Part shown: positions 4,304 to 54,260 of the stretch, one piece after another
How the letters are laid out: every line of letters begins with the position of its first letter
Numbering within the stretch: position 1 is the first letter of the stretch
Assembly: GCF_988242995.1 (NCBI RefSeq)
Contig: NZ_OZ547043.1
Strand: one strand, 5' to 3'
DNA length: 64,000 nt
The notes under the pieces: generated by a model
Databases searched by the model: none
Told to the model about the DNA's origin: nothing
What the model saw: only the letters and a program-made list of their open reading frames with translations
Made by a program: the position numbers and the translations under genes

Positions 4304-5482
4304 ATGAGTAATATTGTTTACCTGACAGTAACGGGAGAACAACAAGGAAGCATCTCCGCAGGTTGTGGGACTTCTGAGTCTACAGGTAATCGCTGGCAGA
4401 GCGGGCATGAGGATGAAATATTTACATTCTCATTCTTAAATAGTATTACTAATACGGGGCTTGGTTCACAGTTCCATGGTATAACATTTTGTAAATTAAT
4501 TGATAAAAGCACTCCATTATTTATTAATTCCATTAACAATAATGAACAATTATTTATGGAATTTGACTTCTATCGAATAAATAGATTTGGTAGATGGGAA
4601 AAGTATTATTATATACAACTAAGAGGCGCTTTTTTATCGGCTATTCATCATCAGATCATTGAAAATCAACTGGATACAGAAACATTAACTGTTAGTTATG
4701 AATTTATCCTCTGTCAACATCTTATCGCAAATACCGAGTTCAGCTATTTGGCACTCCCTGAAAATTATAACTGTTTGTTTTTACCAAATTCAAAAAACCA
4801 AACAAATAATCGTTTCAAAACGTTAAACAGCAAAGCTATTGGCAGGCTACTTGCTGCTGGTGGCGTATACAATGGGAACATTGAAGGATTCAGAGATACT
4901 GCGGAAAAACTGGGTGGAGATGCAATAAAAGGCTATGATCAAATACTAAATGAAAAAACAGCGGGCATAGCGATAGCAACAGCATCTATTCTTTTAACAA
5001 AGCGTTCTAATGTTGATACATATACAGAAATAAATAGTTACTTAGGCAAACTTAGAGGTCAACAAAAACTTCTTGATGGTATAGACATAATAGAAACAAT
5101 ATACATTAAGAGACCTTCAAAAGACTTAGCTAACTTACGAAAGGAGTTTAATAAAACTGTAAGAAAAAATTTTCTTATCAAACTTGCAAAAACCTCCGAA
5201 GCATCTGAAAGATTCAACGCCGAAGACCTTTTAAGAATGAGAAAGGGCAATGTTCCTCTAAATTATAATGTTCACCATAAACTATCTCTAGATGATGGTG
5301 GTACTAATGATTTCGAAAATTTAGTATTAATCGAAAACGAACCATATCATAAAGTTTTTACTAACATGCAATCACGAATAGCTAAGGGAGTATTAGTAGG
5401 TGAAAGCAAAATCACTCCCTGGGCCATTCCATCTGGCTCAATTTATCCTCCCATGAAAAATATTATGGAACCCACAAAATGA
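4304..5482 (+). CDS. yhhZ: Hcp-like protein fused to a C-terminal HNH/colicin-DNase-type nuclease domain (polymorphic toxin)
   Basis: 392 aa; N-terminal Hcp-like segments (FTF, IDKSTP, FYR); C-terminal HNH motif VHHKLSLDDGGTNDFENLVLIENEPYHKVF resembling colicin E9 DNase; AT-rich. Confidence 0.85.
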   Translation: MSNIVYLTVTGEQQGSISAGCGTSESTGNRWQSGHEDEIFTFSFLNSITNTGLGSQFHGITFCKLIDKSTPLFINSINNNEQLFMEFDFYRINRFGRWEKYYYIQLRGAFLSAIHHQIIENQLDTETLTVSYEFILCQHLIANTEFSYLALPENYNCLFLPNSKNQTNNRFKTLNSKAIGRLLAAGGVYNGNIEGFRDTAEKLGGDAIKGYDQILNEKTAGIAIATASILLTKRSNVDTYTEINSYLGKLRGQQKLLDGIDIIETIYIKRPSKDLANLRKEFNKTVRKNFLIKLAKTSEASERFNAEDLLRMRKGNVPLNYNVHHKLSLDDGGTNDFENLVLIENEPYHKVFTNMQSRIAKGVLVGESKITPWAIPSGSIYPPMKNIMEPTK

Positions 5483-6744: not shown

Positions 6745-8490
6745 TTAATAACCCGCCGTTAAATCATCCACCGAGCGCGGATCGGATGCGCCGTACAACT
6801 CGCCGTCCGGCCCAACCATAATGCTTTGTGTACTACCCATCGCCTCTTTCAGCGCCACTTTCTGACCTTTTGCTTCCAGCAGCTTGAGCGTATCCGGGCT
6901 AAACCCTTTTTCGACACGCAGCTCGTCCGGCAACCACTGATGGTGGAAACGCGGTGCATTGGTCGCTTCGGCGACATTCATACCATAATCGATGCTGTTC
7001 ACCACCATTTGCAGCACGGTAGTGATGATCCGGCTACCGCCTGGGCTACCAGTCACTAACCAGGTTTTACCGTCTTTCACCACAATGGTTGGGGACATCG
7101 ACGACAGCGGGCGTTTATTCGGCCCGACCGCGTTGGCGTCACCACCCACCAGCCCGTAAACGTTCGGTACGCCAGGTTTGGCGGAGAAATCATCCATCTG
7201 GTTATTAAGCAGAATACCGCTCTCGCCCGCGACAATGCCCGTCCCGAAGGTGGTGTTCAGCGTATAGGTCACCGCTACCGCGTTGCCGTCTTTATCCACC
7301 ACTGAGTAATGGGTAGTTTGATTACTCTCATAAGGCGCAAGCTTGCCGGGGCGAATTTCGCTGGATGGCTTCGCTTTATTGATATCGATTTGATCGGCAA
7401 TAGATTTGGCATAGGCTTTATTGGTCAGCGCCTGCCACGGAACTTTGACAAAATCCGGGTCGCCAAGATATTCCGAGCGGTCGGCGTAGGCATATTTCTC
7501 AGCTTCTGCCATGATTTGCATCGCGTCGGCGCTGCCAAAGCCGTATTTCTTCATATCGAAGTTTTCCAGAATATTGAGGATTTGTACGATATGGATCCCG
7601 CCGGAAGATGGCGGTGGCATGGAGTAAACCTGATACCCGCGATAATCGCCGCTAATCGGTGTACGTTCGACCGCTTTATACGCCGCTAAATCTTCTTTAG
7701 TGATCAAGCCACCGTTTTTCTGCATCTCCTGAGCGATCTGCTCCGCTATTGTGCCTTTGTAGAATTCGTCCGGGCCGTTTTCGGCAATCATCTCCAGGCT
7801 CTTTGCCAGGTTCGCCTGCACCAGCTTGTCGCCCTTTTTCAGCGGCGCGCCCTCTTTCCAGAAGATAGCCTTGCTGTTTTCGTGATTCGGCAACACTTCG
7901 CTACCGTAGGTTTTGAGATCGTCAGCCAGCGCGTCATTAACGATAAAACCATCGCGTGCCAGTTTAAACGCCGGCTGCACCACTTTATTTAACGGCATGG
8001 TGCCGTACTTCTCCAGCGCCAGCGAGAAACCTGCGACCGTACCTGGCGTACCGGAGGCCAGATGCGAAGTGAGTGATTTTTTGCTGTCCGGGTTGCCCTG
8101 GTCATCGAGGAACATATCGCGGGTCGCTTTGGCGGGTGCCATTTCGCGGAAATCGATAGCGGTGGTATTGCCATTTTTCGAGCGGATCAGCATAAAACCA
8201 CCACCGCCCAGATTCCCTGCCTGCGGATGCGTTACCGCCAGCGCGTAGCCCACCGCCACGGCGGCATCAACGGCATTCCCGCCCTCCTTTAGAATATCTA
8301 CCCCCACCTGAGTGGCAGTAGCATCTACAGACGCCACCATCCCCTGTTTCGCGCGTACCGGATGAAAGACATCTTCCTCCACGCCGTAAGAAACAGGAGA
8401 CGGCGCAGGTGGCGCGGCTACCGTACTAAAACAACTTCCTGTGAACAGAGCAGCAATGGCCACCCGGCGTAAAAACGTCGGTTTTATCAT
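6745..8490 (-). CDS. ggt: gamma-glutamyltranspeptidase
   Basis: Start refined to MIKPTFLRR (signal peptide) within ORF 6745-8517; 581 aa; conserved catalytic Thr region (NQTTHYSVVD) and GGG motifs. Confidence 0.95.
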   Translation of the reverse strand: MIKPTFLRRVAIAALFTGSCFSTVAAPPAPSPVSYGVEEDVFHPVRAKQGMVASVDATATQVGVDILKEGGNAVDAAVAVGYALAVTHPQAGNLGGGGFMLIRSKNGNTTAIDFREMAPAKATRDMFLDDQGNPDSKKSLTSHLASGTPGTVAGFSLALEKYGTMPLNKVVQPAFKLARDGFIVNDALADDLKTYGSEVLPNHENSKAIFWKEGAPLKKGDKLVQANLAKSLEMIAENGPDEFYKGTIAEQIAQEMQKNGGLITKEDLAAYKAVERTPISGDYRGYQVYSMPPPSSGGIHIVQILNILENFDMKKYGFGSADAMQIMAEAEKYAYADRSEYLGDPDFVKVPWQALTNKAYAKSIADQIDINKAKPSSEIRPGKLAPYESNQTTHYSVVDKDGNAVAVTYTLNTTFGTGIVAGESGILLNNQMDDFSAKPGVPNVYGLVGGDANAVGPNKRPLSSMSPTIVVKDGKTWLVTGSPGGSRIITTVLQMVVNSIDYGMNVAEATNAPRFHHQWLPDELRVEKGFSPDTLKLLEAKGQKVALKEAMGSTQSIMVGPDGELYGASDPRSVDDLTAGY

Positions 8491-34728: not shown

Positions 34729-35316
34729 ATGTATCGGATAGTTCTGGGGAAAGTTTCGACCTTAAGCGCAGCTCCTCTGCCACCGGGTTTACGCGAGCAA
34801 GCACCGCAAGGTCCACGACGTGAACGCTGGCTGGCGGGGCGTGCATTGCTTTCGCACACGCTTTCCCCGCTACCGGAGATCATCTATGGCGAACAAGGCA
34901 AACCGGCATTCGCGCCGGAAACGCCGCTATGGTTCAACTTAAGCCATAGCGGTGACGATATCGCCCTGCTGTTGAGCGATGAAGGCGAAGTCGGCTGCGA
35001 TATCGAAGTGATTCGCCCGCGCGCCAACTGGCGCTGGCTGGCGAACGCCGTGTTCAGCCTCGGGGAACACGCTGAGATGGACGCCGTGCATCCTGATCAG
35101 CAACTGGAAATGTTCTGGCGCATCTGGACGCGCAAAGAAGCCATCGTTAAACAGCGTGGCGGCAGCGCCTGGCAAATCGTCAGCGTAGACAGCACCTATA
35201 ACTCCTCGCTGTCAGTCAGCCATTGTCAGCTGGAAAATTTAAGCCTGGCGATCTGCACCCCTACCCCCTTTACGCTCACCGCCGACAGTGTGCAATGGAT
35301 CGATTCAGTTAACTGA
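34729..35316 (+). CDS. acpT: 4'-phosphopantetheinyl transferase
   Basis: 195 aa; PPTase motifs (FNLSHSGD, WTRKEA). Confidence 0.92.
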   Translation: MYRIVLGKVSTLSAAPLPPGLREQAPQGPRRERWLAGRALLSHTLSPLPEIIYGEQGKPAFAPETPLWFNLSHSGDDIALLLSDEGEVGCDIEVIRPRANWRWLANAVFSLGEHAEMDAVHPDQQLEMFWRIWTRKEAIVKQRGGSAWQIVSVDSTYNSSLSVSHCQLENLSLAICTPTPFTLTADSVQWIDSVN

Positions 35317-35361
35317 TCCGCCCACCCGACTGCCCATCTATTGATCCAGAACAGGTAATCA

Positions 35362-35389
35362 GTATGACGAATACTTAAAATCGTCATAC
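35362..35389 (+). promoter_or_regulatory. NikR operator in the nikA promoter
   Basis: GTATGA-16 nt-TCATAC perfect dyad (gtatgacgaatacttaaaatcgtcatac) seen directly, about 40 nt upstream of nikA. Confidence 0.85.
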
Positions 35390-35426
35390 TTATTTCCGCC
35401 ATCTATTTTAATCCATTGGGGTTACC

Positions 35427-37001
35427 ATGTTCTCTACACTCCGCCGCACTCTATTTGCGCTGCTGGCTTGTGCGTCTTTTATCGTCCATGCCGCTGCACC
35501 AGATGAAATCACCACCGCCTGGCCGGTGAATGTCGGGCCACTAAACCCGCACCTTTACACGCCTAACCAGATGTTCGCCCAGAGCATGGTTTATGAACCA
35601 TTGGTGAAATATCAGGCAGACGGTTCGGTGATCCCGTGGCTGGCAAAAAGCTGGACTCATTCAGAAGATGGTAAAACCTGGACCTTCACCCTGCGTGATG
35701 ACGTGAAATTCTCCAACGGCGAACCGTTTGATGCAGAGGCGGCGGCAGAAAACTTCCGCGCAGTGCTCGATAACCGTCAACGTCACGCCTGGCTGGAGCT
35801 GGCAAACCAGATTGTTGATGTCAAAGCACTCAGTAAAACAGAGCTGCAAATCACCCTGAAAAGCGCCTACTATCCTTTCCTGCAAGAACTGGCCCTGCCG
35901 CGCCCTTTCCGTTTTATCGCCCCCTCGCAGTTTAAAAACCATGAAACCATGAACGGGATTAAAGCGCCAATTGGCACCGGGCCGTGGATTTTGCAGGAAT
36001 CGAAACTGAATCAGTACGATGTCTTCGTCCGTAACGAAAACTACTGGGGCGAAAAGCCGGCGATTAAAAAGATCACCTTTAACGTGATCCCGGACCCGAC
36101 TACCCGCGCGGTGGCGTTTGAAACTGGCGATATCGACCTGCTGTACGGAAACGAAGGGTTATTACCGCTCGATACCTTCGCCCGCTTTAGCCAGAACCCG
36201 GCTTACCACACCCAACTGTCACAGCCGATCGAAACCGTGATGCTGGCGCTCAATACCGCCAAAGCCCCCACCAACGAGCTGGCCGTACGTGAAGCTCTTA
36301 ATTACGCGGTAAACAAAAAATCGCTGATTGATAACGCGTTGTATGGCACCCAGCAGGTCGCCGACACCCTGTTTGCTCCTTCTGTGCCCTACGCCAACCT
36401 CGGCCTGAAACCGCGCCAGTACGATCCGCAGAAAGCGAAAGCGTTGCTGGAAAAAGCCGGTTGGACGCTTCCTGCGGGCAAAGACATCCGCGAGAAAAAT
36501 GGTCAGCCGCTGCGCATTGAACTGTCGTTCATCGGCACCGATGCGTTAAGCAAATCGATGGCGGAAATCATTCAGGCTGATATGCGCCAGATTGGCGCAG
36601 ATGTCTCACTGGTTGGCGAAGAAGAGAGCAGTATCTATGCTCGTCAGCGCGACGGTCGTTTTGGCATGATTTTCCATCGCACCTGGGGCGCGCCATACGA
36701 TCCACACGCCTTCCTGAGTTCAATGCGCGTACCGTCGCACGCTGATTTCCAGGCACAGCAAGGATTAGCCGACAAGCCGCTGATTGATAAAGAGATCGGC
36801 GAAGTGCTGGCAACCCATGACGAAACGCAACGTCAGGCGCTGTATCGCGACATTCTGACCCGTCTGCATGACGAGGCGGTTTATCTGCCTATCAGTTACA
36901 TCTCGATGATGGTGGTATCAAAACCGGAGCTGGGTAACATCCCCTACGCGCCGATCGCCACCGAAATTCCGTTCGAACAGATTAAACCGGTGAAACCTTA
37001 A
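35427..37001 (+). CDS. nikA: nickel ABC transporter periplasmic binding protein
   Basis: 524 aa with signal peptide; matches remembered NikA. Confidence 0.96.
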
Positions 37002-37941
37002 TGTTGCGTTACGTATTACGCCGCTTTCTGCTGCTGATCCCGATGGTGCTCGCCGCCTCGGTGATCATTTTTCTGATGCTGCGCCTCGGCACCGGCGACC
37101 CGGCGCTCGATTATCTGCGTCTGTCTAACCTGCCGCCGACGCCGGAGATGCTGGCCTCTACACGCACCATGCTGGGGCTGGATCAGCCGCTGTATGTCCA
37201 GTACGGCACCTGGTTGTGGAAGGCGCTGCATCTTGACTTTGGTATCTCATTCGCCAGCCAACGCCCGGTGCTGGACGATATGCTGAACTTCCTGCCCGCC
37301 ACGCTGGAACTTGCAGGTGCCGCGCTGGTATTAATTCTGCTCACTTCCGTACCGCTCGGTATCTGGGCGGCGCGCCATCGCGATCGTCTGCCGGATTTCG
37401 CCGTACGTTTCATCGCGTTTCTCGGCGTGTCGATGCCCAACTTCTGGCTGGCGTTTTTGCTGGTGATGGCGTTTTCGGTATATCTGCAATGGCTACCCGC
37501 GATGGGCTACGGCGGCTGGCAGCACATCATTTTGCCTGCGGTTTCCATTGCCTTTATGTCGCTGGCGATTAATGCACGGCTACTGCGCGCCAGCATGCTG
37601 GACGTCGCCGGTCAGCGTCACGTCACCTGGGCGCGGCTACGCGGCCTGAATGACAAACAGACCGAGCGTCGTCATATTCTGCGCAATGCCTCGCTGCCGA
37701 TGATCACCGCCGTGGGGATGCACATTGGCGAACTGATTGGCGGGACGATGATTATCGAAAACATCTTTGCCTGGCCGGGCGTCGGGCGCTATGCGGTGTC
37801 GGCGATTTTTAACCGTGACTATCCGGTGATCCAGTGCTTTACGCTGATGATGGTGGTGGTTTTTGTGGTCTGTAATTTGATTGTTGATTTGCTCAACGCC
37901 GCGCTGGACCCGCGCATTCGTCGTCATGAAGGAGCCCACGC

Positions 37942-37945
<4 letters not shown>
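37001..37945 (+). CDS. nikB: nickel ABC transporter permease
   Basis: 314 aa; DppB-like permease. Confidence 0.96.
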
Positions 37946-40749
<2,804 letters not shown>

Positions 40750-40947
40750 CACCTACCAACGCGCCGTTATTTCCTGACGGCGCAGTAAATTCCTGCCAAA
40801 TATCGACTCACGTCACATTTTTTTGATCACGATTTGGTCCCTCAAAATGTGAGACGCTTCGATCCTCTTTTTCTCCCGTTCACCTACTATACGCTTGAAG
40901 TTGTCCATGATTGTCCATAGACAACTGTAAATGTTCAGGTGCGCGCC

Positions 40948-41694
40948 ATGAAATCATTAAGTAAGTCGTCACAAATACCGCTCTATCAACAAGTGGTGGA
41001 GTGGATAAGAGAAAGTATTTATACCGGGGATTTGGTGGAAGACGATCGCATTCCTTCGGAATACCAGATTATGGATATGCTGGAAGTGAGTCGGGGAACC
41101 GTTAAAAAAGCAGTCGCCCAACTGGTAAAAGAAGGCGTGTTGATTCAGGTCCAGGGGAAGGGAACATTTGTCAAAAAAGAGAACGTGGCATATCCGTTAG
41201 GTGAAGGATTATTGTCATTCGCGGAATCGCTGGAAAGCCAGAAAATACACTTTACCACTGAAGTTATTACGTCACGGATTGAACCGGCTAATCGTTATGT
41301 GGCAGAGAAATTAAGAATAACGCCCGGTCAGGATATTCTTTACCTTGAGCGTTTACGTTCAATTGGTGATGAAAAAGCGATGCTGATAGAGAACCGTATC
41401 AATATTGAGCTATGCCCCGGCATCGTGGAAATCGATTTTAATCAACACAATTTATTTCCAACAATAGAAAGTTTGTCGCAAAGAAAAATTCGTTACTCGG
41501 AAAGTCGCTATGCCGCGCGATTAATTGGTAATGAACGCGGTCATTTTTTAGATATCAGTGAAGATGCACCCGTTTTGCATCTGGAGCAGTTAGTCTTTTT
41601 CTCCCGAGAGTTACCCGTTGAGTTTGGCAACGTCTGGTTAAAAGGAAATAAATATTATCTGGGTACCGTGCTGCAACGGCGGGAATTGAGTTAA
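40948..41694 (+). CDS. GntR/HutC-family transcriptional regulator (HTH + UTRA effector domain)
   Basis: ATG at 40948 with upstream AGGTG (track start 40939 is GTG); N-terminal GntR HTH (IPSEYQIMDMLEVSRGTVKKAVAQLVKEGVL...GKGTFV); not part of K-12 at this position. Confidence 0.8.
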   Translation: MKSLSKSSQIPLYQQVVEWIRESIYTGDLVEDDRIPSEYQIMDMLEVSRGTVKKAVAQLVKEGVLIQVQGKGTFVKKENVAYPLGEGLLSFAESLESQKIHFTTEVITSRIEPANRYVAEKLRITPGQDILYLERLRSIGDEKAMLIENRINIELCPGIVEIDFNQHNLFPTIESLSQRKIRYSESRYAARLIGNERGHFLDISEDAPVLHLEQLVFFSRELPVEFGNVWLKGNKYYLGTVLQRRELS

Positions 41695-41718
41695 ATACAC
41701 TTTTTTATGAGGAATAAA

Positions 41719-42192
41719 ATGCAAGGCATACAGTTTCAGGAAAATTATATTCAACGACTTCCGGCAGGGTTAAGCGTTGAACAGATCATCCGTCAGTTAG
41801 CGCAACCGTTGGTTGCTGCTGAGCTGGTGGTCCCTGATTTTGCCGATCACGTACTGAAACGTGAGGCGACGTACCCAACAGGGCTGCCTACCGAACCGCC
41901 GTGCGTCGCTATTCCGCACACGGACCATAAACATGTCAGGCACAATGCAATTGCCGTCGGCATCCTGCCGGAACCGGTAGAGTTTGCCGATATGGGCGGC
42001 GATCCTGACCCCGTACCTGTCAGGGTGATTTTTTTGCTCGCCTTAAGCGAAAGTAATAAACAATTAAATGCCCTGGGCTGGATTATGGAGATGATTCAGG
42101 ATACGCCCTTTATGCGCGCCCTGCTTACGATGGAAACAACAGAAATACACACAGTAATCTTAAACAAAATGAAAGAACGAGGTGAAATATGA
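41719..42192 (+). CDS. PTS EIIA component, galactitol (GAT) family
   Basis: GatA-like motifs (YPTGLPTEP ... VAIPHTDH); start taken at ATG after GAGGA (track start 41707). Confidence 0.75.
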   Translation: MQGIQFQENYIQRLPAGLSVEQIIRQLAQPLVAAELVVPDFADHVLKREATYPTGLPTEPPCVAIPHTDHKHVRHNAIAVGILPEPVEFADMGGDPDPVPVRVIFLLALSESNKQLNALGWIMEMIQDTPFMRALLTMETTEIHTVILNKMKERGEI

Positions 42193-42470
42193 GTCAAACC
42201 ATTTTATTTGTCTGCGCCACGGGTATTGCCACATCCACGGCGGTAACAGAAAAAGTCATGGAATATTGTAAAGAGCACGGTCTTAACGTCAATTATTCCC
42301 AAACCAACGTTGCCTCTTTACCTGGAAATACTGACGGCGTAGCACTGGTAGTCTCAACGACTAAAGTGCCTTATGAACTCGACGTCCCGGTGGTTAACGG
42401 CTTGCCGATTATTACCGGTATTGGCGAAGAGAAAGTACTGGCGCAAATTGTTTCGATCCTTAAAAAGTAA
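42189..42470 (+). CDS. PTS EIIB component, galactitol (GAT) family
   Basis: 93 aa; phosphocysteine motif near the N-terminus (ILFVCATGIATST) like GatB; 4-bp overlap with EIIA. Confidence 0.78.
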   Translation: MSQTILFVCATGIATSTAVTEKVMEYCKEHGLNVNYSQTNVASLPGNTDGVALVVSTTKVPYELDVPVVNGLPIITGIGEEKVLAQIVSILKK

Positions 42471-42546
42471 TTAATAATAATTAATTTCAACCCACTCCAT
42501 CAGGCGCTAACGCGAGGTGCGCTCTCGCCTGAAAAAGAGGTTTATT

Positions 42547-43905
42547 ATGAACGATATCGCGCATACCCTCTATAATATTGTGCAATATATATTGGGATTT
42601 GGTCCCACGGTAATGTTGCCGTTGGTGTTATTTATTCTTGCTCTCTTTTTTAAAGTAAAACCCGCTAAAGCCTTACGTTCGTCATTAACGGTCGGTATTG
42701 GTTTTGTCGGTATTTATGCCATTTTCGATATTCTTACCAGCAATGTCGGGCCAGCGGCCCAGGCGATGGTTGAACGCACCGGAATTAATTTACCGGTGGT
42801 GGATTTAGGCTGGCCGCCGCTTTCCGCTATTACATGGGGTTCGCCAATTGCCCCGTTTGTTATTCCCCTGACTATTCTGATTAACGTGGCGATGCTGGCG
42901 TTAAATAAAACCCGCACCGTTGACGTAGATATGTGGAACTACTGGCATTTTGCCCTTGCCGGTACGCTGGTTTATTACAGCACCGGCAGCCTGTTCTTTG
43001 GTTTGCTGGCAGCGGCGATTGCTGCGGTGGTAGTACTTAAACTCGCCGACTGGTCTGCGCCACTGGTACAAAAATACTTTGGCCTGGAAGGGATCTCTTT
43101 GCCGACGCTCTCTTCGGTGGTGTTCTTTCCGGTCGGTCTGTTGGTCGACAAAATCATCGACCATATCCCCGGCCTCAATCGTATTCATATCGATCCGGAA
43201 ACCGTACAGAAAAAGTTTGGCATATTCGGCGAACCGATGATGGTTGGTACTATTCTGGGCATTCTGCTCGGCGTAATTGCCGGATACGATTTCAAAAAAG
43301 TCTTGCTGCTTGGCATCAGCATTGGCGGTGTGATGTTCATCCTGCCACGCATGGTTCGCATTCTGATGGAAGGTTTATTACCGCTGTCTGAAGCCATTAA
43401 AAAGTATCTCAATGCCAAATACCCTGACCGTGACGATCTCTATATCGGCCTGGATATCGCCGTTGCCGTAGGTAACCCAGCGATTATCTCCACCGCCCTG
43501 CTGCTGACGCCAATCTCGGTCTTTATCGCGTTTGTCCTTCCGGGTAATGAAGTCCTGCCGCTTGGCGACCTTGCCAACCTGGCGGTAATGGCGTCGATGA
43601 TTGCTTTAGCCAGCCGTGGCAACATTTTCCGCACCGTTCTGGCGGCGATTCCGGTGATTATTGCCGATCTGTGGATTGCGACTAAAATCGCGCCGTTTAT
43701 TACCGGAATGGCGAAAGACGTTAATTTCAAATTTGCCGAAGGCTCCAGCGGCCAGGTCTCCAGTTTCCTTGATGGCGGTAACCCGTTCCGCTTCTGGCTG
43801 CTGGAAATCTTCAACGGCAATCTCATCGCCATTGGTCTGGTGCCGGTTATTGCCCTGGTACTGTATGGTATTTTCCGAATGACGCGGAGCACGGTTTATG
43901 CCTGA
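42547..43905 (+). CDS. PTS EIIC permease, galactitol (GAT) family
   Basis: About 452 aa polytopic membrane protein; ATG at 42547 preceded by AAGAGG (track start 42517 is GTG). Confidence 0.75.
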   Translation: MNDIAHTLYNIVQYILGFGPTVMLPLVLFILALFFKVKPAKALRSSLTVGIGFVGIYAIFDILTSNVGPAAQAMVERTGINLPVVDLGWPPLSAITWGSPIAPFVIPLTILINVAMLALNKTRTVDVDMWNYWHFALAGTLVYYSTGSLFFGLLAAAIAAVVVLKLADWSAPLVQKYFGLEGISLPTLSSVVFFPVGLLVDKIIDHIPGLNRIHIDPETVQKKFGIFGEPMMVGTILGILLGVIAGYDFKKVLLLGISIGGVMFILPRMVRILMEGLLPLSEAIKKYLNAKYPDRDDLYIGLDIAVAVGNPAIISTALLLTPISVFIAFVLPGNEVLPLGDLANLAVMASMIALASRGNIFRTVLAAIPVIIADLWIATKIAPFITGMAKDVNFKFAEGSSGQVSSFLDGGNPFRFWLLEIFNGNLIAIGLVPVIALVLYGIFRMTRSTVYA

Positions 43906-45406
43906 TAACAGCGCAGCTATCGTTATCGATATTGGCACCACCAATTGCAAAGTCACCTGCTTTTCCTGCCTGGACGCAACGACGTTGGGCGCGCATAAAT
44001 TCGTGACGGCAAAACAGATCTCCCCACAGGGCAATGTCGATTTCGATATCGACGCCCTCTGGCAGGAGGTCCGCCAGGCGATAGCGCAACTGAACGCCGC
44101 TTCGCCGCTGCCAGTCAGGCGGATAAGCATTGCCAGTTTTGGCGAGTCAGGCGTGTTCCTTGACGAGCATGGCGAGATCCTGACGCCAATGCTGGCATGG
44201 TATGACCGTCGCGGTGAAGAGTATCTGGCTACACTTAGCGAGGCAGACAGTGCGGCACTTTATGACATTTGCGGGTTACCGCTGCACAGCAATTACTCTG
44301 CCTTCAAAATGCGTTGGTTGCTGGAACATTACCCACTGCGTAATCGCCGCGGCCTGCGTTGGCTACATGCGCCGGAAGTACTGCTCTGGCGGCTGACCGG
44401 CGAACAGCGCACGGATATCACCTTAGCCAGCCGCACGCTGTGTCTGGACGTGCGCAAAGGCGCATGGTCAGTGAAAGCGGCGGCGTTGTTACACGTTCCC
44501 TGTTCAGCATTTGCGCCATTGGTGCAGCCAGGCGAACACGCCGGATGGGTCAGCGAGTCGCTCTGCAAAACGCTTGGGTTCTCGCAACCGGTCAGCGTGA
44601 CGCTGGCCGGACATGACCATATGGTGGGTGCGCGAGCGTTGCAGATGATGCCGGGCGATATCCTTAACTCGACGGGGACCACAGAAGGTATTCTGCAACT
44701 GGATACACAACCGACGCTGGATGAACAGGCCAAACGTGACAAGCTGGCAAACGGCTGTTATTCGCTTGCAAACCAGTTCACCCTGTTTGCGTCGCTGCCC
44801 GTGGGCGGTTTCGCTCTGGAGTGGCTGCGTAACACGTTCCGGCTAACCGATGAGGAGATCGCCGCATCACTTACTCGCGGACATGCGGATTACCTGGCGG
44901 GGAACTGGTCGCTCGATGACATTCCCCTCTTTATTCCACATCTTCGCGGTTCGGGTTCGCCCTATAAAAATCGCCATACTCGTGGATTATTTTATGGGCT
45001 TGGCGATACGTTAAATATCGACATGTTAATTGCCAGCGTCTCACTGGGATTAACCATGGAATTTGCCAACTGCTTCGCCTGTTTTAATGTGCCTGGCACC
45101 AGCGCGTTAAAAGTGATAGGTCCGGCAACCCAAAATCCCCTTTGGCTGCAATTAAAAGCGGATATTTTACAGCGTCCGGTTGAAGCAATTGCATTTAACG
45201 AGGCGGTTTCTGTCGGAGCATTATTAACTGCCGCACCGGATATTCCACCGCCGCAAGTTACCATAGCCCAACGTTTGTTACCGAATCGGGCGAGATACCA
45301 TCAATTACAGCGTTATCAGCACAAATGGAAAAGCTGGTATCAGTTGAAATTACAGCAAGAAGGCGTGATGCCATTACACCATCGGGAGGAGCACTATGTT
45401 GAGTAA
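43898..45406 (+). CDS. FGGY-family carbohydrate kinase
   Basis: 502 aa; N-terminal actin-fold phosphate-1 motif (AIVIDIGTTNCKV) and FGGY-type glycine-rich segments; 8-bp overlap with EIIC gene. Confidence 0.7.
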   Translation: MPDNSAAIVIDIGTTNCKVTCFSCLDATTLGAHKFVTAKQISPQGNVDFDIDALWQEVRQAIAQLNAASPLPVRRISIASFGESGVFLDEHGEILTPMLAWYDRRGEEYLATLSEADSAALYDICGLPLHSNYSAFKMRWLLEHYPLRNRRGLRWLHAPEVLLWRLTGEQRTDITLASRTLCLDVRKGAWSVKAAALLHVPCSAFAPLVQPGEHAGWVSESLCKTLGFSQPVSVTLAGHDHMVGARALQMMPGDILNSTGTTEGILQLDTQPTLDEQAKRDKLANGCYSLANQFTLFASLPVGGFALEWLRNTFRLTDEEIAASLTRGHADYLAGNWSLDDIPLFIPHLRGSGSPYKNRHTRGLFYGLGDTLNIDMLIASVSLGLTMEFANCFACFNVPGTSALKVIGPATQNPLWLQLKADILQRPVEAIAFNEAVSVGALLTAAPDIPPPQVTIAQRLLPNRARYHQLQRYQHKWKSWYQLKLQQEGVMPLHHREEHYVE

Positions 45407-45665
45407 AACCGTGGAGGTCAGAAACAGTACTGGCCTGCATGCACGTCCGGCGGCGTGTCTGGTGAAAGCCGCCAAAAAGTTTAGCTGTAAAGTGACGCTG
45501 CATTATGAGGGTAATGATATTAATGCCACCAGCATGATGAATATTATGCGCGCCGGAATAAAAGGCGGCAAAACGGTGGAAATACGCTGCGAAGGCGATG
45601 ATGAAAATGAGGCAATACAAACTCTCACTGCCTTATTTCGTGACCGCTTCGGTGAAGCTGAATAA
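45396..45665 (+). CDS. HPr-family phosphocarrier protein (operon-specific paralog)
   Basis: 89 aa; active-site His context GLHARPAA identical in pattern to HPr His15; strong SD GGGAGGAG. Confidence 0.8.
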   Translation: MLSKTVEVRNSTGLHARPAACLVKAAKKFSCKVTLHYEGNDINATSMMNIMRAGIKGGKTVEIRCEGDDENEAIQTLTALFRDRFGEAE

Positions 45666-45695
45666 TTAACTGATATTAAAAGATGAGGTTTTCAA

Positions 45696-46547
45696 ATGCC
45701 ATTAGTTAATGGACGGATACTGCTCGACCGCATTCAGGAAAAACGGGTATTAGCGGGCGCGTTTAATACCACCAATCTGGAGACGACGATTTCAATTTTA
45801 AACGCCATTGAGCGTTCAGGATTACCCAACTTCATTCAGATTGCGCCCACCAATGCACAACTCTCGGGATACGATTACATTTATGAAATCGTGAAACGTC
45901 ACGCCGATAAAATGGATGTTCCGGTCAGTCTTCATCTGGATCACGGGAAAACTCAGGAGGATGTTAAACAGGCGGTGCGCGCGGGCTTTACCTCGGTCAT
46001 GATTGACGGTGCCGCATTATCTTTTGAAGAGAATATCGCTTTCACCCAGGAAGCTGTCGATTTCTGTAAATCCTATGGCGTACCGGTTGAAGCGGAGCTG
46101 GGGGCGATTCTCGGCAAAGAAGATGATCACGTCAGCGAAGCCGATTGCAAAACGGAACCGGAAAAGGTGAAGACCTTTGTCGAGCGCACCGGTTGCGACA
46201 TGCTGGCAGTTTCTATTGGCAACGTTCATGGCCTGGACGATATACCGCGTATCGATATCCCCCTGCTGAAGCGCATTGCCGAAGTCTGCCCGGTGCCGCT
46301 GGTTATTCACGGCGGCTCCGGTATCGCCCCGGAAATATTACGCAGCTTTGTTAATTATCGCGTCGCTAAAGTAAATATCGCCAGCGATCTGCGCAAAGCG
46401 TTTATCACCGCCGTCGGCAAAGCGTATGTGAATAATCACAACGAGGCGAATCTGGCACGAGTGATGGCATCAGCAAAAAACGCCGTCGAGGAAGATGTGT
46501 ATAGCAAAATCCTGATGATGAATGAGGGGCATCGGTTGGTTAAGTAA
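45696..46547 (+). CDS. class II ketose-bisphosphate aldolase (GatY/KbaY/FbaA family)
   Basis: 283 aa; metal-binding His motifs (HLDHG, VIHGGSG) typical of class II tagatose/fructose-bisphosphate aldolases. Confidence 0.8.
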   Translation: MPLVNGRILLDRIQEKRVLAGAFNTTNLETTISILNAIERSGLPNFIQIAPTNAQLSGYDYIYEIVKRHADKMDVPVSLHLDHGKTQEDVKQAVRAGFTSVMIDGAALSFEENIAFTQEAVDFCKSYGVPVEAELGAILGKEDDHVSEADCKTEPEKVKTFVERTGCDMLAVSIGNVHGLDDIPRIDIPLLKRIAEVCPVPLVIHGGSGIAPEILRSFVNYRVAKVNIASDLRKAFITAVGKAYVNNHNEANLARVMASAKNAVEEDVYSKILMMNEGHRLVK

Positions 46548-52029: not shown

Positions 52030-52745
52030 CCAGGGTTAATTTGGCAATAAATATCCTCCGGCATAGCCGGAGGTTTTTCAAATGCGCCTATAAGGCTCTC
52101 TTACCAGCCGCGCCCTAACAGGCGCACACGATCTGACATTTGCATCCAACTTCGTTACTTACGGCCCGTAAACGGGCTGCCCGGATAGGGAATCGATAAC
52201 TGCTCTCCCATTTTATCCTCTTCAAGCTGGTGCTTTATGTAATCCTGTATCTTCGCCGTGTTCTTACCCACTGTATCGACGTAGTACCCTCTGCACCAGA
52301 ACTCCCTGTTCCTGTATTTGAATTTCAAATCACCAAACTGCTCGTAAAGCATCAGACTGCTTTTCCCTTTCAGATATCCCATAAAGCCGGATACGCTCAT
52401 TTTGGGCGGGATCTCCACAAGCATATGGATATAATCTGCACAGCATTCAGCTTCCAGAATCCGTACGCTTTTCCACTCACACAGCTTTCTCAAAATACTG
52501 CCTATTGCTCTACGCTTCTCTCTGTAGAACACCTGTCTTCGGTATTTTGGCGCAAAAACTATGTGATATTTACAGTTCCATCGGGTGTGCGCTAAGCTCT
52601 TTTCGTTCCCCATTGGGACCCCCTTTTGATTTCTTGTTTGACACTTGCAGTTGCCAGACCGCAAAGTGTTTTAACAAATCAAAAGGGGTTTTAATAACTG
52701 GCTCAAAGCTGAAAGCTTTCCGGAACCCCCAGCCTAGCTGGGGGT
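52030..52745 (-). mobile_element. IS200-like insertion sequence (IS200/IS605 family, tnpA only); boundaries approximate
   Basis: About 0.7 kb element containing a Y1/HUH transposase gene, with a perfect GC-rich hairpin (aacccccagc cta gctgggggtt) at the tnpA-upstream end as in IS200 left ends; absent from the K-12 arrangement. Confidence 0.7.
52155..52613 (-). CDS. tnpA: IS200/IS605-family Y1 (HUH) transposase TnpA
   Basis: 152 aa from MGNEKSLAHTRWNCKYHIVFAPKYRR; HUH-type motif (YIHMLV) and catalytic Tyr region; start refined from ORF 52155-52664. Confidence 0.85.
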   Translation of the reverse strand: MGNEKSLAHTRWNCKYHIVFAPKYRRQVFYREKRRAIGSILRKLCEWKSVRILEAECCADYIHMLVEIPPKMSVSGFMGYLKGKSSLMLYEQFGDLKFKYRNREFWCRGYYVDTVGKNTAKIQDYIKHQLEEDKMGEQLSIPYPGSPFTGRK

Positions 52746-54260
52746 TTTCTGTGCACAATTATGCATGCTGAACATTCTTCCAGCATGTTTACTGTCACGG
52801 GCGTTAAGACCTAAAACTGTCCCCGTTTCACCTATGCGTTCTCTTCCACCATTACCGTTATGTGCAACAACTTGATTTATACCTAACATTTGTGAGCATG
52901 CTAATAGTTCTTCAAGTTTCGGTCTGTAATCTGTCGAAACAGAAAAATAACGATTAAAGGATCGACAAGAGATAGCCCGGCTAGTTTTAAACTTTTTACC
53001 ATTAATGATGGCATGATGCTTCTTATTAATAATTGCCGCTAATTCGACCGGATCGAGAGCATTGGTCATTTCATCAATAGAGACTGTTATCGGTCCTATA
53101 ATGTAACGTTTTCGCTGATCATCAAAAGTTATCCCATGATGATTTGCCATTATTTTGTATTTGGGGTCATAGAAACATACAGGATAATCTTTTATCCCAG
53201 CGTAGGTATCCTCATCAAGTGGTTTCATACGCGTGAAGTTCTGCATATAGTTACCATTGCAATTCGTTTCATGATTACCAGCTAATACATGAACATTTTT
53301 ATTAATACTCATTATGCGTTTTAACAAATCGATGATAAATTGATCGCCACAGATATTACTAAATCGATCGCCGGTTTGGTCACCCAGAAACGTACATGGC
53401 GTCACTGCGCCCTGATTAATAACTAAATATGGCTGAAGACTTTCTAAAACCACATCTCTTCTGTTCAGAATACTGATTATTGTATTAACATTAATGTCTA
53501 GTTCCTCATTAATTTTTTCCCTTAATAAAACGTTGAGAACTTCATCTTCTATATTAAGCAACTGGCTAAGAAAATTTACTTCTTCAGCCATAATTCCCAA
53601 ATGTCCCGTTGCGAAAAGCGCGTACAAAACTGCACCGACTGAGCCATCGGTATCACCAAAATAGGTTGGTCTGGTACTTGTGGGATCAACGGGTGAACAA
53701 TTGGAGAAATAGATTCTGTCAGCGAACTGGGGTTTTATAATTGTTTCGAATTTAATATCAGATACATTGTATTGCGATATTTTCCAGTTCCAGATGGGTT
53801 TGTACGACTCAGTAACTGCAACATCATTAGCATTATCATTTACTGTCATATTATTAAGTAAATAAACAATGCTGCACCAATTAATATCGGTATCATCAAG
53901 AGGGCAACCGTAATTTTTACTATTAATTGTCACAATAAACTGATAACTATTATTCCTACGTAGAATATGGGCACGCATGCCCGATAGCATACTATATTTT
54001 TCTGAATGATTCGTTTCTATGGTAAATGAAATTTTGTCATCTTGAAAAGATTGTTGGAAACGTTCTATTTGCCAATCATCAATTTTTTCCACAACTTCAC
54101 CGAGCATTGTCCTGGCAATACTTGATATATCATCACCTATACCATTTGCAATATACCCAAACAGTTCTTTAGTGAAGTTAGTAACATGCTCTTGCACCAT
54201 ATCATTTGTTGCGATAGTCGTTATACTGTCGTTAGTACCTGCCACAGTTCCAATTTTCAT
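52734..54260 (-). CDS. yhiJ: DUF4049-type protein with C-terminal PPP-like metallophosphoesterase motifs; 3' end abuts or is altered by the IS200 end
   Basis: 508 aa; motifs GDTDG, GDQTGDRF, LAGNHE in PPP order; SD GAGGT upstream; paralog of the next gene; AT-rich. Confidence 0.8.
   Translation of the reverse strand: MKIGTVAGTNDSITTIATNDMVQEHVTNFTKELFGYIANGIGDDISSIARTMLGEVVEKIDDWQIERFQQSFQDDKISFTIETNHSEKYSMLSGMRAHILRRNNSYQFIVTINSKNYGCPLDDTDINWCSIVYLLNNMTVNDNANDVAVTESYKPIWNWKISQYNVSDIKFETIIKPQFADRIYFSNCSPVDPTSTRPTYFGDTDGSVGAVLYALFATGHLGIMAEEVNFLSQLLNIEDEVLNVLLREKINEELDINVNTIISILNRRDVVLESLQPYLVINQGAVTPCTFLGDQTGDRFSNICGDQFIIDLLKRIMSINKNVHVLAGNHETNCNGNYMQNFTRMKPLDEDTYAGIKDYPVCFYDPKYKIMANHHGITFDDQRKRYIIGPITVSIDEMTNALDPVELAAIINKKHHAIINGKKFKTSRAISCRSFNRYFSVSTDYRPKLEELLACSQMLGINQVVAHNGNGGRERIGETGTVLGLNARDSKHAGRMFSMHNCAQKTPS

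Follow-up and report, generated by a model that had tools for sequence, protein, structure and literature searches.

The window analysed here, a stretch of 64,000 nucleotides, carries genes in the order acpT-nikABCDE-nikR, with an inverted repeat inside the 110-bp spacer between acpT and nikA. The upstream open reading frame, which ends at 35316, was assigned to AcpT (NF007676, 395 bits); the dyad starts 46 bp past its stop codon and lies 38 bp 5' of the nikA ATG. The nikA gene (35427-37001, plus strand), the first one under the operator, codes for the periplasmic nickel-binding protein, as judged from its match to TIGR02294 (839.7 bits against a cut-off of 393) and from the annotation of matching genomes. 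It is followed on the same strand by the permease/ATPase subunit group nikB (37001-37945), nikC (37942-38775), nikD (38775-39539) and nikE (39536-40342), whose reading frames overlap or abut throughout the block 37001-40342, and all five proteins, NikA to NikE, score above their curated cut-offs. After a gap of only 5 bp comes nikR (40348-40749, plus strand), encoding the nickel-responsive repressor, with a ribbon-helix-helix domain at the N-terminus and a nickel-binding domain at the C-terminus (NF002815, 235 bits; TIGR02793 also above cut-off). RefSeq annotates the same gene order in K-12 MG1655 and in the E. coli genomes that match the window. An earlier note, made from the letters of the window, had placed the dyad upstream of nikA with nikR downstream, and the TIGR02294 and NF002815 matches bear out both gene calls.

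The window as a whole is E. coli-like and not close to any of the 5426 complete RefSeq genomes of that species. The best identities are 98.2% over positions 1-20300, 98.9% over 40700-64000 and 99.6%, to swine strains, over 35000-36000, and the best-matching strain changes by segment; this suggests a poorly sampled lineage or a mosaic produced by recombination. Between nikR and yhhJ (40939-46500) there is a sugar-utilisation cassette comprising a GntR regulator, PTS IIA, IIB and galactitol-type IIC components, an FGGY/L-fuculokinase-like kinase, HPr and a class II aldolase, at a place where K-12 has rhsB and EC556 an RHS/IS remnant. This spot is variable: a single place matching at least 80% of window positions 40700-64000 exists in only 716 of 5425 genomes. 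An insertion of about 700 bp relative to EC556 and GF60 (52049-52755), situated in the yhiY-yhiJ intergenic region, is IS200C, with an IS200/IS605-family tnpA at 52155-52664 on the minus strand; some E. coli genomes hold many copies of this element.

Sequence and symmetry of the dyad

Direct reading and a pattern search of the window both gave GTATGACGAATACTTAAAATCGTCATAC at positions 35362-35389. It consists of a left half-site GTATGA (35362-35367) and a right half-site TCATAC (35384-35389), both perfect over 6 nt, which flank a spacer of 16 nt to form a symmetric 28-bp site with no strand assigned; the centres of the half-sites are 22 bp apart, that is, about two helical turns. A perfect GTATGA-N16-TCATAC repeat at this position was the central claim of the earlier note, and a recount of half-sites and spacing found it exact to the base. 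Its description of the symmetry held for the 6-nt arms but fell short of the full extent, since an inverted-repeat search and reading revealed a larger perfect palindrome at 35361-35390 (again without strand), with 10-nt arms AGTATGACGA (35361-35370) and TCGTCATACT (35381-35390) and the 10-nt core ATACTTAAAA between them. An imperfect palindrome reaches even further, to 17-nt arms with 88% complementarity (35354-35370 and 35381-35397).

The pattern GTATGA-N16-TCATAC matches nowhere else in the 64-kb window. None of 100 dinucleotide-preserving shuffles contained it (mean 0.00); by calculation, about 64000/4^12, or 0.004, occurrences are expected per window. When up to three mismatches were allowed, the number of matches in the window rose to 21, against 19.2 expected by chance; the other 20 all carried three mismatches, and matches with one or two mismatches were absent. 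The same scan gave no second operator near nikR. Within this window, the dyad is a single, unique site.

Identity to the K-12 operator

In an alignment with the characterised nik operator, the check named by the earlier note, the acpT-nikA spacer is identical to that of K-12 MG1655 (NC_000913.3) at 110 of 110 positions. The repressor is equally unchanged, as NikR of the window matches K-12 NikR over all 133 residues and has the same sequence as the protein in PDB entries 1Q5V, 2HZA, 2HZV and 3OD2, of which 2HZV is the NikR-operator complex (Schreiter et al. 2006, according to reviews). As summarized in a review citing Chivers & Sauer (2000, 2002) and Bloom & Zamble (2004), Ni(II)-NikR binds palindromic GTATGA-N16-TCATAC in the nikABCDE promoter with nanomolar affinity; the review credits Chivers & Sauer 2000 and Bloom & Zamble 2004 with Ni(II)-dependent binding of NikR to the K-12 sequence, which is identical to that of the window, and two more papers give the same NikR site and mechanism. 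The 28-bp site, the 110-bp spacer, NikR and the operon order are all the same in K-12 and in the window, and the two differ only in the surrounding coding DNA, the nik region being 96.9% identical (199 mismatches in 6488 bp). At the level of sequence, the element is not just NikR-operator-like but is the K-12 NikR operator itself. At the divergence rate of the nik region, the probability of finding no change in a 110-bp spacer is about 0.03, which makes the unchanged spacer mildly significant; it fits purifying selection that may act on regulatory DNA.

Conservation within E. coli

The acpT-nikA region is present, always on the chromosome, in 5425 of the 5426 complete E. coli genomes, and 5267 of these 5425 show no change over the 40 bp that have the dyad in their middle. 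In the remaining 158 genomes, the aligned part is 95-99% identical. Three of these 158, the most divergent among the matches listed, were aligned base by base, and in all three alleles the half-sites are untouched. The variants examined differ instead 5' of the FNR-like box described below, at the base just before this box, and in the stretch that separates the box from the dyad; in one strain the spacer base at 35371 is changed from A to G. A single genome of the 5426 is without any acpT-nikA match, and a few E. coli records carry two copies of the region, giving 5429-5430 places in 5425 records.

Conservation across genera

Loci from other genera were obtained by a tblastn search of NikR against a collection of plasmid records, among which are also mislabelled chromosomes and large secondary replicons. 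One example of the former is the Klebsiella pneumoniae 'plasmid unnamed2' (CP125156.1), which at 5.37 Mb is evidently a chromosome, as are two E. coli records of 4.9 Mb. In CP125156.1 there is no nikE row between nikD and nikR, either because the PLSDB gene table is incomplete there or because the gene is a pseudogene.

Klebsiella pneumoniae, whose NikR is ~80% identical, has GTATGA-TGAATCACTAAAATCG-TCATAC upstream of nikA, with a TTGATCCAG motif further upstream and the hexamer TAAAAT within the spacer. In the alphaproteobacterium Labrenzia (NikR 62% identical), GTATGA-TGTCTATAGAAAAACA-TCATAC is situated between nikR and a divergent nikA-like ABC transporter. Agrobacterium vitis has GTAAGA-N16-TCATAC, with one mismatch, between divergent nikA and nikR. 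The left half-site GTATGA is thus unchanged in Klebsiella and Labrenzia, and the right half-site TCATAC in all three. These sites share with the window, apart from the one mismatch in A. vitis, the half-sites, the 16-bp spacing and a position next to nickel-transporter genes and nikR; the alphaproteobacterial loci differ in that nikR is divergent from the transporter and the dyad occupies the shared intergenic region. The spacer sequences differ among the three organisms, and the spacing does not. Retention of half-sites and spacing around differing spacers is the signature of a protein-binding dyad. The enterobacterial NikR consensus has been given as GTATGAT-N13/14-ATCATAC (PMC545781). At the base inside each half-site, these other proteobacterial sites have T, and E. 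coli has C. On the protein side, residues R3, T5 and T7 of NikR are invariant in all five proteins compared; we take them to be the N-terminal beta-strand residues that contact the bases in the 2HZV structure.

The divergent intergenic region of A. vitis contains, besides the main dyad, a second, partial NikR-like element, GGATAA-N13-TCATAC within GATGATACATCATACATCAGCATC (6951-6976 of that locus), near the start of nikR, which may be a second site. A nikR/hoxN locus from Paraburkholderia had also been considered as support and was dropped, as it has a single TCATAC half-site only.

Promoter architecture

A motif search found one FNR-like box in the acpT-nikA intergenic region, TTGATCCAGAACAG at 35341-35354 (plus strand, centre 35347.5), with 8 of 10 matches to TTGAT-N4-ATCAA. 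In an FNR ChIP-seq study of K-12, nikABCDE is among the operons directly activated by FNR, with one motif at -40.5 from the start site; the summit of the peak is at 3,611,605 in the coordinates of that paper (PMC3688515). Combining the centre of the box with the published distance puts the putative nikA transcription start at about 35388 on the plus strand. The hexamer TAAAAT at 35376-35381 (plus strand), which has 5 of 6 matches to TATAAT, lies within the operator spacer and also occurs in that of Klebsiella; with a start at 35388 it would span -12 to -7, as expected of a -10 element, and the operator would extend from about -26 to +2. If the two genome versions are offset by 1,977 bp, as we assume, the ChIP-seq summit falls 85 bp upstream of the nikA ATG, and would correspond to a position near 35342 in the window. 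The location of the box near the expected -41.5, along with FNR occupancy and FNR-dependent expression in K-12, would class PnikA as a class II FNR-activated promoter. A sigma-70 consensus scan of 35200-35500 returned no promoter; class II FNR promoters are without a -35 element, so this blank was not counted against the assignment.

Over the whole window, TTGAT-N4-ATCAA with up to two mismatches occurs 54 times, against 32.8 expected, and none of 100 shuffles reached 54. This excess may reflect codon or oligonucleotide bias, and not FNR/CRP sites.

Other readings of the palindrome

A possible additional role, beside NikR binding and not instead of it, comes from the heptamer TACTTAT at 35387-35393. 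It matches exactly the NarL heptamer, the consensus of which is, we presume, TACYYMT, and could be a candidate NarL site for nitrate repression of nikA. According to the literature, nikA is NarL-regulated, yet a NarL site is not detectable. The heptamer is one of 19 in 64 kb, with ~0.03-0.05 expected per 110-bp spacer, and it overlaps the right half-site and the putative start, a sensible position for a repressor. However, a 7-mer match is weak evidence for NarL, this one is partly forced by the NikR half-site, and Klebsiella lacks it, having TACTTTC instead. We therefore regard a NarL site here as unlikely, though worth naming: if the assignment is true, TACTTAT could be the NarL site that has escaped detection and through which nitrate represses nickel uptake. 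The broader idea that the operator carries more than NikR half-sites, with NikR and NarL sharing one stretch of DNA, draws on this heptamer and on the identity of the 110-bp spacer to that of K-12 despite a divergence of ~3% in the nik region; it is just as tentative.

A second reading takes the palindrome to be primarily an RNA hairpin that ends or stabilises the acpT transcript, and not a protein site. Its position is 46 bp past the stop codon of acpT, UUAUUUCC comes next, and the predicted RNA fold, a 10-bp stem with extra flanking pairs, is stable (-15.6 kcal/mol, z = -5.9). Yet such a fold is the automatic outcome of any DNA palindrome. As an intrinsic terminator the structure is poor, with 4 G-C pairs in 10, a 10-nt loop where 3-8 nt would be usual, and UUAUUUCC as a weak U-tract, and a terminator scan of 35200-35500 was blank. 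Moreover, in Labrenzia and A. vitis the dyad sits between divergent genes, where there is no transcript to terminate, and what is conserved is half-site sequence at a fixed spacing and not merely pairing. This makes a primary role as an RNA hairpin very improbable. The idea that the repeat arose by chance and has no function is backed only by how common short palindromes are in AT-rich intergenic DNA; it can practically be dismissed in view of the shuffles and the expected count given above, the identity to an experimentally characterised site and the conservation next to nik genes in E. coli and other genera.

Discussion

The dyad at 35362-35389 is almost certainly the operator of the nikABCDE(-nikR) operon for nickel uptake, and no result obtained here speaks against this assignment; NikR would repress there by occluding an FNR-activated promoter. 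With enough Ni(II) in the cytoplasm, the NikR tetramer would take up nickel in its central domain, and its two ribbon-helix-helix dimers would each contact one GTATGA half-site through a beta-sheet placed in the major groove; the half-sites face the same side of the helix at a distance of 22 bp, which would match a tetramer that presents two dimers in this way. The 28-bp site is predicted to cover both the -10 hexamer and the start point of the class II FNR promoter, such that NikR bound there would exclude RNA polymerase and shut off nickel import. Without nickel, NikR would leave the DNA, and FNR would drive expression under anaerobiosis. Anaerobic growth is when the [NiFe]-hydrogenases need nickel. 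In this scheme we infer from the arrangement of the promoter where transcription starts, which hexamer serves as the -10 element and that NikR represses by occlusion. Nickel-dependent binding and the crystal structure of the complex are established by the literature on this exact sequence, to which the present analysis adds its sequence and position in the window, its identity to the K-12 site and repressor, and its conservation.

The earlier note had also proposed nickel-dependent autoregulation of the nik operon by nikR. The operator part of this proposal agrees with the published site, but the word autoregulation is only partly apt. The nikR gene, 5 bp past nikE, can be read through from PnikA; a second source of nikR transcripts is reportedly a weak constitutive promoter within nikE, and a crude scan of 40150-40950 for such a nikR-specific promoter gave no consensus match. 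Taken together, read-through and a separate promoter would mean that the main regulated output of the operator is the transporter and not the repressor.

The site is already known: base for base it is the characterised K-12 operator, real but ordinary. It has been the model case of a NikR operator since 2000, and its complex with the repressor was solved in 2006. Its value in this work is that of a positive control, as a reader given the sequence only found an experimentally validated site to the exact base. The comparison of 5425 E. coli genomes, Klebsiella and two alphaproteobacteria provides a small added confirmation that selection preserves the half-sites and the 16-bp spacing, and not the sequence of the spacer.

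NikR sites elsewhere show how far this arrangement extends. The deltaproteobacterial signal is GTGTTAC-N13/14-GTAACAC (PMC545781), and Helicobacter pylori NikR is pleiotropic, with no consensus operator identified according to a review. Deltaproteobacterial and H. pylori sites have the same architecture as the one in the window, an inverted repeat of 27-28 bp with two widely spaced half-sites for one tetramer, but their half-site sequence is unlike that found here. Among other proteins of this type, Arc, MetJ and CopG bind adjacent or tandem short boxes. In NikR, the two DNA-binding dimers are kept apart by the metal-binding tetramerisation domain, which accounts for the 16-bp gap between the half-sites. 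What Arc, MetJ and CopG share with NikR, as also described in a review, is the two-stranded antiparallel beta-sheet that enters the major groove.
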